DNA from: Octopus vulgaris
Lineage: Eukaryota
Length of the DNA: 64,000 nucleotides
Assembly: GCA_951406725.2 (NCBI GenBank)
Contig: OX597820.1
Span: 17,050,001 to 17,114,000 of the forward strand
Direction of reading: 5' to 3'
Of the stretch, positions 390 through 49,324 are shown one piece after another; the stretch's first letter is position 1, and each line of letters starts with the position of its first letter. Both the position numbers and the translations under genes were made by a program. Under the pieces are notes generated by a model. That model saw only the letters and a list, made by a program, of their open reading frames with translations. It was not told where the DNA came from and did no database searches.

Positions 390-672
390 TACGGAGATGT
401 ACTTGCATAGCAAGTGATTTGATCTGAGATCATGTGCTGAAACGAAAACAATTGCAGCGTGGAAGTTGTTTGTAAGCCATTTAAGAAACACACAAAAGCC
501 GTTCGATTTACTTCAACATTTAAGTTTGGTTTGTCAAAATATTTTCGTCGCTTTAAGACCGCGACCTGTTCACTGACAAAAATCCGTGCTGCAGCACGGA
601 TATTTGTGTTTCTTAAACGGCTTTTGTGTGTTTCTTAAATGGCTTACAAACACCTTCCACGCTGCAATTGTT
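390..672 (-). mobile_element. PLE-type non-autonomous fold-back element with HHR-like motif
   Basis: Inverted arms 447-503 and 616-672 (1 mismatch); perfect hairpin ATCCGTGCTGCAGCACGGAT at 582-601; ends in (TA)n. Confidence 0.6.
530..580 (-). ncRNA. Type I hammerhead-like motif with G3-C8 swapped core
   Basis: Minus strand TTTGTCA|GTGAACA|G|GTCGC-ggtcttaaa-GCGAC|GAAAA-ta-TTT|TGACAAA: 7-bp stem I, 5-bp stem II, palindromic stem III. Confidence 0.6.
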
Positions 673-726
673 ATATATATATATATATATATATATATAT
701 ATATATATATATATATATATATATAT

Positions 727-868
727 CTGTCCGACGGACGGGAACGTGAAACTTTGAGTAACAGCTTTTGTTATATTTCTGGTGCTTTTAAATAAAACAT
801 ATTACTCTACCTCTGGTATTTGAGTACTCTTTTTTCCACCTTGTTTCACATTTATGTGCTTACTCCGG
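727..868 (+). mobile_element. Short HHR-bearing repeat between (TA)n tracts, degenerate core
   Basis: CTGT|CCGACGG|ACG-ggaa-CGT|GAAAC-tttga-GTA|ACAG at 727-764; a sister copy at 15473-15620 has the canonical CTGATGA. Confidence 0.55.
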
Positions 869-1005
869 TATATATATATATATATATATATATATATATA
901 TATATATATATATATATATATATATATAATATATATGTACATGTATGTGAGTATGGTGAACACAGAAGCCACGAGAGCCACTGCCTGGTACTGCATCGGT
1001 GCATT

Positions 1006-1181
1006 TATTATTATTAATATTGTTATTATTATTATTATTATTATTATTATTATTATTATTATTATTATTATTATTATTATTGTTATTGTTGTTGTTGTTG
1101 TTGTTGTTGTTGTTGTTGTTATTATTATTATTATTATTATTATCATTATTATCATCATTATTATTATTATTATTATTATTA
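1006..1181. repeat. (ATT)n/(GTT)n microsatellite
   Basis: Direct inspection. Confidence 0.95.
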
Positions 1182-1600
1182 TATACCATTCATTCAAATG
1201 TATGTCTGTGAATACGTGTTTAAAACTAAACTGTTAAAGAGCTTCGGGTGTGAAGAGATGATAAATTGAAAATTCTATATTCGCAAATTGCAAAGTATTA
1301 ATGATGAAAACATTTCACGAATAATCCAATTAGGAATAAGTGTCTGTTGAATTAAACAAACAACATATGTATATACAAATAGTTCTTAATGTATATCGTT
1401 CAATATAACTTTATATTACGAAAACTCAAAGCGTTCAGAACTTCATTACCGAGCGTATTATAATGTAATGCAAGATATATATATATATATATATATATAT
1501 ATTATCATGTCTGTAACCTTACGTTTATGTAAAGTGTGTATAACATAGCTTTCATAGACTTAAAATATATATAGAAGTGGAAATAATATAATGAGGGAAA

Positions 1601-45992: not shown

Positions 45993-46028
45993 CTTTTACG
46001 TTTCGAGCCTACGCTCTTCTACAGAAAG
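45993..46028 (-). ncRNA. Minimal hammerhead-like motif, CTGTAGA variant
   Basis: CTTT|CTGTAGA|A|GAGC-gtag-GCTC|GAAAC GTA|AAAG. Confidence 0.6.
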
Positions 46029-47864
46029 GGCCACAGAAAAAACAAGGAGAGAAACAAGGAGAGAAAAAATGTGTGTAGTGGCTAACGAATCCTATATGTG
46101 TGTCTATATAGATGTTTCCATGCAGGTTTGGAAGCAGTTGATCATAATTCACAGGTGGAGTATGTGTCTCACAATGCGACAAAGGTAGACCATTGAATTA
46201 CGATTATAATCAATTAATCAATCCCGTCTACCAGCTTCATTCAAGGTATGAGTGGTCACAAGACCATACCCTAGATGTCACACTTACCCTCGATGCCACG
46301 TTGTGAATTGAAAGCGGGATATCATGACTCAGAAACAAACTTCACTACAAATGATTCTTCGTTGTACCTGGTTAATTAAAGTGAGAAATGTACCTTTAAA
46401 TCCCTCAATAAAAATATATAATGTACCCAAATTCTGAGTTGTTTTCCAAACAGAGGTTGCCATACACTGTATGATATGCATAAATTTATAATTATGTGCA
46501 TCTGTATGCGTATGTATGTGTGTGTGTATTTGTATGTATATTAGTATATGTGTATGCATGAGTGTATGCGTTTGATAGATATAACAGATTATATAGTGCT
46601 GTATTAGATTTAATAAGATGTATTGTAATTATATCAAATAGTTATCAAAACTGTTGTAGCATACACATATATACACATCACACAGGCATATTTATATACT
46701 AGCGAACGTACATGCACACCGTATATACATATATATCACTCCCTCTTTCTTTCTTTTCTCTCTCTCTCTCTCTCTCTCTATATATATATATATAAATTTA
46801 AATATAAATATATATATATATATATATATATATATATACACACATACATATGTATATGTATATATACATATATATGTGGTACATATATGTATATATATAT
46901 GTCTACATATATGTTTGTATGTATGTATATGTTTGTATGTATATATATGTTTGTATGTATATATATATAGATACCTATATGTATCTGTATGCATGTGTGT
47001 ATATATATATGTTTGTATGTATATGCAAATATATATATATATATGTGTGTGTATATATGTTTGTATATATGTATATATTTGTATCTATATATATATATAT
47101 GTATATATGTATATATGATTATATCTATGTATGCATATATATATGTGTATATATATATATATATATATATATATATATATGTTTGTATGTATGTATATGT
47201 ATATATATATATGTTTGTATGTATGTATATATATATATACTTATATATGTCTGTGTGTATGTGTATATATATATATGTTATGTAAATATTTTATATATAT
47301 ATATATATATATATATATATATATATATATATATATATATATATATATATATATATATATATATATGTATATATGCATATGTGTGTATATAAGTTTAAAC
47401 AAATATTGAATACTTATGTATTTCACTTTTATGTATATGTTTACTCACACACTTGCGAATATCCGAAGCAAATTCGACAGAAATCACATTCGTTAGCTAT
47501 TATCGATAGAAAGCAATATTTTATCACTTTATATATCTACAGCAAAGAAAAACAAATACACAAATAAACCAACAAATAGTTATAAATTAATAACAACTTG
47601 GTGGATTTTATGATGAAACTTTGATTCTGTCGTCGTGTATATGAGATACATAATATTACTGATGAAGAATGCATTACAGCGGAAGTGGTTTATGGGAAAT
47701 GTATATGCTAAAGCGTAATATGGTGTTCAATAATGAATAAAACAGCATCGGTGGCAGACGATGTGGTAGAAAATACGTAGGAAGTAAGCAGGATGACTCA
47801 GAATCTGTTGGGTTATGGAAAAGTCAGAGGAAATTTAAACAAATTCTTAGAAGAGTTCATATAT

Positions 47865-48643
47865 TTTTCTTTACTACCCACAAGGGGCTAAACATAGAGA
47901 GGACAAACACGGACAGACAAACGGATTAAGTCGATTACATCGACGCCAGGGCGAACTGGTACTTTATTTAATCGACCCCGAAAGGATGAAAACAAAGTCG
48001 ACCTCGGCGGAATTTGGACTCAGAACGTAGCGGCAGACGAAATACCTATTTCTTTACTACCCACAATGGGCTAAACACAGAAGGGGACAAACACGGACAG
48101 ACGAAGGGATTAAGTCGATTACATCGACCCAAGGGCGAACTGGTACTTTATTTAATCGACCCCGAAAGGATGAAAACAAAGTCGACCTCGGCGGAATTTG
48201 GACTCAGAACGTAGCGGCAGACGAAATACCTATTTCTTTACTACCCACAAGGGCTAAACACAGAGGGGCCAAACAAGGGCGGACAGATGGATTAAGTCGA
48301 TTATATCGACCCCATTGCGTAACTGGTACTTATTTAATCGACCCCGAAAGGATGAAAGGCAAAGTCGACCTCGGTGGAATTTGAACTCAGAACGTAGCGG
48401 CAGACGAAATTCCTATTTCTTTACTACCCACAAGGGGCTAAACACAGAGGGGACAAACACGGACAGACGAAGGGATTAAGTCGATTACATCGACCCCAGG
48501 GCGAACTGGTACTTTATTTATCGACCCCGAAGAGATGAAAGACAAAGTCAACCTCGGCGGAATTTGAACTCAGAACGTAGCGGCAGACGAAATACCGCTA
48601 AGCATTTCGCCCGGTGTGCTTACGTTTCTGCCAGCTCGCCGCC
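47865..48643 (-). mobile_element. SINE family A tandem tetramer (~183-bp period) with one head and an 18-bp TSD
   Basis: TTACTACCC at 47871, 48054, 48238, 48421; TTAGAA(GA/CC)GTTCATATAT at 47847-47864 and 48644-48661. Confidence 0.9.
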
Positions 48644-49029
48644 TTAGAACCGTTCATATATGGTTCAGATATATTTGACTTGTAAAAGGACAACTGATAT
48701 AAATGCCTGTTTATTTCACAACATACTTTGCATACTTACTTACTATATAATATGTTGGAGTTTGGCGGTCGTCACTCACAGTCTCTGGATAATTTTCATT
48801 GGTTTTCCAAAAGGAAACTACGGCTTCCAGAGTCTTTTCACGGTTATTCCGCTCGGTGTAACGATAAATCGACTGGCGACATTTGAAGAGTTTTAAATGC
48901 ATTCATCGATATACATGAAGTGCTCTAAATCATTGTTGTTGCTTTAATACTTGTTGCCTAACGCGAGAATTTTCTCCATGGCAAACCGTAATGAAAATAA
49001 CATTTTTACGGGACAAATATCCCTAATAT

Positions 49030-49324
49030 TCTGTTGTGTATGGGGAGAGTCATTTTCTTTTTGTGCCTTATTATGTAACACACTCACCGATAAAATTTCC
49101 AGTTTTTTCTTATTTTTATTGTCCTAAAATTTATGTTGCGTCAACTATTGAAAAGGTTGCAAGACGCAACGAAAATTTTAGGAAAATAAAAATAAGTGGA
49201 AATCTTACCGGTGAGTGTGTTACATAATAAGGCACAAAATGAAAATGACTCTTCCCAGACAAAACAGAATATGCTTCAACACAAGAACTCATATAAAGAA
49301 TCTTGCAAACCAAATCCCAAAACG
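49030..49324. mobile_element. Fold-back HHR-like element with 15-bp TSD
   Basis: AAATATCCCTAATAT at 49015-49029 and 49325-49339; arms ~49026-49142 and 49163-49272. Confidence 0.8.
49145..49181 (+). ncRNA. Minimal hammerhead-like motif with U3-A8 core
   Basis: CTA|TTGAAAA|G|GTTGC-aagac-GCAAC|GAAAA TTT|TAG. Confidence 0.55.

Follow-up and report, generated by a model that had tools for sequence, protein, structure and literature searches.

Head-to-head pairs of short Penelope-type copies in the octopus genome probably arise by dual priming, with the hammerhead ribozyme as a minor modifier of the join

Why do short repeats in the genome of Octopus vulgaris turn back on themselves at a hammerhead ribozyme (HHR) motif? 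The question is raised by a stretch of 64,000 nucleotides (nt) of this genome (assembly GCA_951406725.2, contig OX597820.1, positions 17,050,001 to 17,114,000; hereafter the window, numbered from its first letter), in which seven inverted duplications had been ascribed to reverse transcription of Penelope-like elements (PLEs) that halts at the ribozyme and snaps back onto its own cDNA. All seven are found at the positions given, and every one falls inside, or at most about 20 nt from, a minimal type I HHR motif, placed by means of other copies of the same family. The list was nevertheless selective, in that two further pairs of the window, at 5460–6358 and 32251–32452, join away from the HHR, the former being the longest and youngest pair in the window, with arms 99% identical. 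Nor are the seven symmetric fold-backs. In each, one arm continues into a 3' tail of about 50–150 nt whereas the other halts at a fixed inner site, and the 5' ends of the two arms are usually unequal. We consider that such head-to-head pairs are probably made by dual priming on what is likely a single, mostly uncut RNA, followed by joining through microhomology.

The seven palindromes fall into six short Penelope-type families, F1–F6, with those at 20.6 and 49.1 kb both belonging to F4 (Table 1). They are genomic, and the original prediction was right to see in them PLE insertions with inverted 5' segments. As the other copies indicate, each family follows the same plan, comprising a 5' lead, the HHR motif, a body of 36–100 nt that ends at an inner 3' end (site A), and a tail of about 50–150 nt that runs to an outer end (site B). 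The sampled genome (2.8 Gb) is rich in microsatellites, and each family has from hundreds to thousands of short copies in it (843, 1,168, 680, 621 and 2,358 first-look candidates). A minimal type I HHR has the core N3-U-G-A-N-N8-A with pairing of positions 3 and 8, GAAA, UH, and stems I–III. A purpose-built descriptor gives 115 matches in 1.6 Mb of random genome versus 21 in shuffled sequence, and positions 3 and 8 pair in 77 of the 115 versus 6 of the 21. The cores are CUGANGA or CCGACGA in F2, F5, and F6, of the U3-A8 type in F3 and F4, and G3-C8 in F1. Single-sequence folding recovers the HHR stems in three of five stretches (z −2.2 to −2.5), including stems I and II of the F1 motif of the window in its minimum-energy fold (z −2.3), and fails to do so for F2 and F5; Rfam names no hammerhead family in three targeted scans, nor among the matches listed for the whole window (150 of 326). 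As judged by the descriptor, the repeat families carry minimal type I HHR motifs.

Two sets of copies were used, i.e., 160 random stretches of 10 kb (the 1.6 Mb above) and copies anchored on their tails, whose 5' ends are thus unselected (30 each for F1, F2, and F4, and the first 20 hits outside the window each for F6 and F5). After removal of three window-derived loci, 127 tail-anchored loci remain, 77 of which carry an inverted, 5'-truncated copy at their 5' end and a further 8 a tail-less stub of 10–15 nt; the random set adds 20 pairs, for a total of 97 pairs and 194 arm ends. The window-derived loci (L191, L222, and L251) are kept in the counts of arm divergence and shared variants, target duplications, and joins, and dropped from those of end positions, stop rates, and asymmetry. 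L237, whose match is a short local repeat, counts as a solo copy, and 30 body-anchored F4 loci were inspected by eye and enter none of the statistics. Pairs with fewer than 30 shared columns are excluded from the analyses of arm divergence and of asymmetry against age, and the five-family statistics cover F1, F2, F4, F5, and F6, leaving out F3 and F7. Arm 5' ends are numbered relative to the first base of the HHR core.

The geometry of the pairs is strict at the 3' side and free at the 5' side. In 82 of the 97 pairs the tail-less partner terminates no more than 10 nt from site A, and in none does it run more than 35 nt past this site or reach the tail end. Every one of the 20 random pairs combines one tail arm with one tail-less arm, and pairs of two tail arms or two tail-less arms are absent (0/20 in the random set, with 0/77 tail-anchored partners reaching the tail end). 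Solo copies ending at site A also exist. At the other side, the arm that extends further 5' is the tail-less one in 39 pairs and the tail arm in 41, the remaining 17 being symmetric within 3 nt, and four pairs (L049, L051, L172, and L231) do not overlap, sharing no body sequence. Filler is present at 36 of 76 joins, and an overlap of at least 3 nt at 19 of the 40 filler-free joins, versus 6.4% expected. Three independent F4 loci (L255, L259, and L260) have the same 3-nt join, between −10 and +15, which is mirrored at 49140–49142 of the window; as this recurrence shows, some joins are set by sequence.

Both arms come from one source, since they share 66 non-majority letters versus 12.5 expected between loci, 17 of them private to their own locus. 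In 46 of 66 pairs an arm resembles its partner more than it does copies at other loci, and the arms diverge by 5.7% on average (66 pairs). Microsatellites flank 59 of 78 pairs, leaving 19 in which a target duplication can be tested; among these 19, the flanks match over at least 9 nt in 12, versus 3 of 140 mismatched flanks. The duplications measure 12–15 nt, lengths that include a few terminal element bases, and lie around the whole unit. The palindromes are thus old single insertions of short Penelope-type pieces. Both outer junctions of the 49.1-kb pair are present in contigs of an independent run, and contigs of other runs hold its left flank with the adjoining arm (X2, X3, and X5), its right arm with the flank (X3), and many family joins of like kind.

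Two fixed 3' ends, target duplications, shared variants, independent 5' ends, and joins with microhomology or filler are the products that a mechanism has to yield, and dual priming would yield them as follows. A PLE enzyme acting in trans would cut both target strands with a stagger of 12–15 nt, and one cut end would prime at the outer start, site B, the other at the inner start, site A, of the same RNA. The RNA would survive the copying, and the outer copy would displace the inner one; to our knowledge, no RNase H domain is listed for PLEs. Both copies would run 5'-ward, each stopping independently, most frequently at the capped 5' end of the RNA (10–25 nt before stem I in three families), inside the HHR about twice as often as immediately 3' of it, and in a minority of cases at the self-cleavage site. 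The two copies would then anneal head to head through a few matching bases, with repair filling in the rest. For PAc, the Poseidon element of Anolis, reverse transcription starts at two sites bracketing the tail, and both target strands are cut and extended in vitro (PMC11167929). A stronger form of the proposal can be held only tentatively, i.e., that double copying is obligate, with an enzyme dimer priming one RNA at two fixed sites from both strands and joining two same-sense cDNAs; the inverted terminal repeat and one-sided tail would then be the normal product, and a minority of ends would record cleavage in vivo.

The positions at which arms stop bear on the template. Per kb at risk, pair arms stop at a rate of 4.7 when 3' of the HHR and of 13.0 within it; the rate is 60.5 over the 25 nt before stem I and 20.3 further upstream. 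The peak before stem I stems from F1, F2, and F4 (99 per kb, versus 9.8 in F5 and F6), and this peak recurs among solo copies of F1 and, in weaker form, of F2 and F4. Genome-wide, the element at the F1 boundary is preceded 357 times by G, 105 times by A or T, and 389 times by the native C, so that G makes up 357 of the 462 non-native bases; four bases further into F1, G makes up 7 of 43 non-native bases (hand count). The bases before this G are mixed, so that the G marks no subfamily, and no upstream exon, however short or long, common to the copies. For F4, a hand count over the first 100 of 1,788 matches gives G at 25 of 42 non-native boundary bases. An untemplated G marks capped full-length copies of LINE-1 (L1), a long interspersed element, and of SVA (PMC4859970), and from the extra G at the F1 boundary we infer that the peak 5' of stem I corresponds to the capped 5' end of the RNA.

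Several points weigh against dual priming on one capped RNA. The mechanism is read from end products. The shared variants fit one RNA, two RNAs of one source copy, or later gene conversion alike, and 54 of 286 arm differences fall at family-variable sites, though it is CpG columns that mutate most (61/363 versus 242/5,169). The tail-less arm is the further 5' in 6 of the 21 youngest pairs and 10 of the 21 oldest, a weak lean toward later deletion. With a partner search range of 330 nt, long pairs are under-counted (two more exist, and L301 has a distant partner). No family has been tied to a coding PLE, and a scan of 80 of 526 long frames gave no match to GIY-YIG. As regards the cap, about ten of the F4 boundary G cases could derive from the partner arm, and the capped start is not confirmed in F5, where 27 matches at an apparent cluster of ends about 80 nt upstream of the core include one extra G and mostly read through. 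Just ahead of the F1 boundary there is also a pyrimidine-rich, branch-point-like stretch that ends in CAG and resembles a 3' splice site, and a spliced RNA with a tiny first exon at this boundary may be the template instead, a live alternative. The intron of D. virilis Penelope ends at helix I (PMC4209133), and by analogy a retained intron may end just before the HHR here. Whether the start is capped or spliced, the F1 peak marks where the template ends and does not reflect the ribozyme. Pyrimidine-rich, branch-point-like stretches with CAG at their end directly precede the HHR at L197 and L041 (upstream of F1) and at L295 (upstream of the F6 core).

Snap-back, the joining route first proposed, makes a definite prediction. 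A folded-back cDNA copies only what it holds and cannot start further 5' than its template, and a tail-less strand cannot supply a tail; the copied arm should never be the further 5' and the arms should always overlap. The 39 pairs with a further tail-less arm and the four without overlap depart from this, and simple snap-back therefore fails for about 40% of the pairs, including those at 20.6, 22.1, and 32.6 kb among the seven. It can be rescued by repair, if the outer-primed cDNA folds, is copied back to site A, and is resolved by the endonuclease, and if the centre is later trimmed unevenly by microhomology-mediated deletion. Palindromes do undergo central deletion. Such a route agrees with the variants shared by the arms, with the 17 symmetric pairs and the 41 with a longer tail arm, and with the microhomology at the joins, which fits deletion as well, and PMC8557442 ascribes the tail to endonuclease-mediated resolution. 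We nevertheless regard it as rather unlikely. It requires one-sided loss from the tail arm in 39 of the 97 pairs, with loss of the whole shared body in four; pairs with more divergent arms are no more asymmetric (rho 0.10, p 0.41), and the identical arms of L304 are already asymmetric by 56 nt. The solo copies that end at site A also count against it, as does the finding that in vitro the reverse transcriptase (RT) initiates at either boundary of the tail (PMC11167929).

Dual priming could also use two separate RNAs bound by an enzyme dimer, one of them copied from each start site, with the copies joined head to head. The geometry would be identical to that with one RNA, PAc is predicted to be a dimer (PMC11167929), and some pairs differ at family-variable sites (54 sites, e.g., in L192 and the 49.1-kb pair). 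Two RNAs would, however, be expected to give pairs of like arms often, and none is seen (0/20 random pairs, with 0/77 tail-anchored partners extending to the tail end); the 17 variants private to a locus and common to both arms also stand against this version, which we consider unlikely. Two different templates as a rule were abandoned as an explanation, because the arms share variants.

This leaves the ribozyme itself, which the original prediction took to define a mechanistic breakpoint, its fold stalling the RT or its cut ending the template, whatever the joining route. As a description, the closeness of pair ends to the HHR exceeds chance. If an end counts as close when it falls inside the HHR or up to 25 nt 5' of it, 53 of the 97 pairs have two close ends, 30 have one, and 14 have none, although the share near the HHR is inflated, since the tail-anchored sets favour window-like copies and partners more than 330 nt away are missed. 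Among pairs found de novo in the random set (n = 27 mapped by hand count, 5 of 32 HHR-associated pairs not being mappable), 17 have both ends in or near the HHR, four lie well upstream, three downstream, and three are mixed. In a cross-family permutation the ends track the HHR (79 versus 66 inside, and 57 versus 39 just 5' of it). Stratified by distance from site A, the end rate inside the HHR is 2.3 times that outside (p = 0.0002), a comparison across families, to which differences in family processivity may contribute. The predicted cut site, too, has slightly more ends than expected (19 versus 10.4 among 59 nearby ends, p = 0.005; 20 versus 13.2 among 75 with unrefined ends, p = 0.03), mostly 1–5 nt 3' of the cut and in F4, F5, and F6, for an interval picked after viewing the data and with a possible contribution from small palindromes there.

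Enrichment inside the HHR thus holds when breakpoints are mapped onto the families, but not over upstream sequence where this is long. In F5 and F6, stops occur at 13.7 per kb inside the HHR versus 19.5 further upstream (ratio 0.70, p = 0.28), with no peak 5' of stem I, and F1 (0/10) and F2 (2/18) show no excess at the cut site. In F1, arms that read through have their joins anywhere between 5 nt and about 4 kb upstream (a wide F1 pair lies, e.g., at C4:99511645-99515754), and in F5 they join 250–500 nt apart. Because 134 of the 194 arm ends lie 5' of the predicted cut site, most templates were uncut, and the strongest peak resembles a capped RNA 5' end. In vitro, uncut RNA is the main substrate and HHR mutants insert normally (PMC11167929), and Naiad PLEs, which are without canonical HHRs, form the same inverted structures (PMC8557442). 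That the ribozyme is the main breakpoint is therefore improbable; more likely it is a minor modifier of join position. The remaining explanation, that the palindromes are assembly or amplification chimeras, can be dismissed, for although no contig among four other runs spans the centre of the 49.1-kb pair or much of its right flank, which proves nothing, the 5.7% arm divergence, the target duplications, the ends at family-fixed sites, and the flank-arm junctions and similar family joins in independent contigs contradict it.

How do these copies compare with known systems? Inverted insertions of pseudo-long terminal repeats (pLTRs) are described for endonuclease-bearing PLEs, i.e., Penelope/Poseidon, Pen2a of A. 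vaga, and Naiads (PMC3846280, PMC8557442), and share with the octopus pairs an inverted, 5'-truncated neighbouring copy, a one-sided tail, a duplication around the unit, and microsatellite targets. The octopus copies differ in being mostly 100–350 nt long, with no open reading frame (ORF) seen; their tails are about 50–150 nt versus 30–40 nt, and their target duplications 12–15 nt versus 8–10 nt, by the figures given in those papers. The available text of both contains no junction map or joining mechanism and treats how inverted structures form as a task still open. PAc is alike in its two RT starts bracketing the tail, in cutting and extension of both strands, and in uncut RNA as chief substrate; the part of PMC11167929 at hand leaves inverted pairs unexplained, and the octopus genome adds a strict rule by which each insertion combines an outer start with an inner one. 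Twin priming of LINE-1 is also alike, in that two target ends prime one RNA and the inverted join carries small indels (PMC4859970). In the octopus copies, there is a fixed second site and usually an overlap between the arms, so that the same stretch has been copied twice. In L1 twin priming, by comparison, the place of second priming is variable, and the two segments are mostly drawn from different parts of the RNA.

The inverted PLE structure (PMC3846280, PMC8557442) and the two start sites (PMC11167929) are already known. A literature search covering few subscription papers, and no older Penelope reviews or supplements, found no map of PLE inversion junctions relative to the HHR and no dual-priming account for PLEs, and the evidence on the mechanism of PLE inversions seems to be new. 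The origin of the inverted repeats and one-sided tails of Penelope is stated as unresolved in PMC8557442, as far as its available text goes. The abundant short octopus copies are a natural record of many insertion events, which ties the two start sites seen in vitro to the inverted structure, argues that most templates were capped and uncut, and shifts the ribozyme from cause to minor modifier. The junction predictions can be tested in the existing in vitro system.

Table 1. Penelope-type copies in the window, with the arm 5' ends of each palindrome given on the row of its first arm
Feature	Coordinates	Strand	Details	Palindrome and arm 5' ends
F1 tail-bearing arm	386–593	−	5' lead; HHR motif 530–580; putative GUGAACA (G3-C8) core 573–567; body; site A near 447; tail to 386	591: −20 and about −20; right arm thereafter without HHR
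F1 tail-less arm	592–672	+	Ends at site A against (TA)n; HHR missing from this arm	
F2 solo copy with tail	726–868	+	Reference for the 15.6-kb pair	
F7 inverted pair	5460–6358	both	HHR cores 5714(−) and 6104(+); join about 140–250 nt upstream of cores; HHR-like fold, z −2.2	
F2 tail-bearing arm	15473–15601	−	Core 15593–15587; stem II partly deleted	15602: −8/−5
F2 tail-less arm, damaged	15606–15643	+	Core 15611–15617; ends at site A against (TA)n; 15606–15621 aligned, remainder by eye	
F3 tail-bearing arm	16046–16155	−	Begins in stem II; core absent; tail end judged by eye against L141	16155: +10/+12
F3 tail-less arm	16156–16219	+	Begins in stem II; family core of U3-A8 type	
F4 tail-bearing arm	20431–20608	−	5' end −5	20613: −5/−14
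F4 tail-less arm	20609–20762	+	5' end −14, further 5' than partner; UUGAAAA (U3-A8) core 20623–20629	
F5 tail-less arm	21974–22109	−	Whole CUGAUGA core (22105–22099) and long stem II	22103: −4 and about +5
F5 tail-bearing arm	22106–22381	+	Begins near end of core; tail about 150 nt	
F4 inverted pair (third copy of the 20.6/49.1-kb family)	32251–32452	both	Ends +73 and +47, both 3' of HHR; join 14–40 nt 3' of HHR	
F6 tail-less arm	32523–32577	−	Begins at GAAA; palindromic stem III	32571: +65 and +68 to +75
F6 tail-bearing arm	32567–32722	+	First unbroken match from about +75	
F4 tail-less arm	49026–49142	−	Begins in loop II (+15); ends at site A	49149: −10/+15
F4 tail-bearing arm	49140–49330	+	Core 49148–49154; 3-nt microhomology at join; target duplication of up to 15 nt around whole pair	

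The HHR motifs resemble those described for metazoan PLEs, which are of the minimal type I with a short palindromic stem III, an extra base between positions 9 and 10.1, and a U3-A8 core variant, and which include many single motifs as well as opposite-strand pairs 100–700 bp apart (PMC4209133); the octopus families share the stem III, the extra base, the core variant, and both arrangements. They differ in the very long stems II of F5, F6, and F7, and in the G3-C8 core of F1, which is not among the core types in the part of that paper available to us. This core (567–573(−) in the window; L191–L220), present in hundreds of exact copies in the genome, would be a natural form of the C3G/G8C rescue mutant of PMC11167929 in a putative ribozyme. 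About ten more HHR-bearing families with inverted pairs, some of the U3-A8 type, occur in the random sample (L035, L047, L048, L049, L053, L054, L056, L086, L149, L173, and L179). Non-LTR retrozymes, as described in bioRxiv 10.64898/2026.07.22.740005, are likewise non-coding, carry a type I HHR, and are related to pLTRs, but they are defined as head-to-tail tandem repeats, whereas most octopus copies stand alone or head to head and tandems are few (L211, L294, and L200). The retrozyme definition asks for two or more head-to-tail units in succession, each with a complete HHR; the pairs of the window are head-to-head instead, and tandem copies elsewhere are rare by eye. One locus, L179:3507-3594, contains two F2 pieces in an arrangement unlike the usual head-to-head pair and is unclassified.

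Candidate enzymes encoded by the genome are given by GIY-YIG frames. Genome-wide, 150 scored GIY-YIG matches lie over the cut-off among 6,136 candidates, none of them tied to these families. A young GIY-YIG family (e.g., C5:102480813-102483376) has open frames of 781 aa at 16 of the 150 scored places, and two matches stand head to head 2.3 kb apart, which would be an inversion joined inside the ORF.

Further inverted duplications in the window belong to repeat families without an HHR by the descriptor (27578–27661, 38716–38870, 42176–42374, and 56958–57923), the one at 57 kb being nested and 98% identical. An abundant dispersed repeat forms tandem arrays with a unit of 184–185 nt at 27875–28363 and 47866–48596. 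Outside the window, an LTR retrotransposon with long open gag-like and RT–RNase H–integrase frames (L113:2631-6886) lies beside F5 copies spaced 827 nt, and pieces of host genes comprise a C2H2 zinc-finger array (L107:5328-6515), a BTB/POZ domain (L051:1135-1875), and a BCL11A-like CCHC finger (L171:1834-2460).

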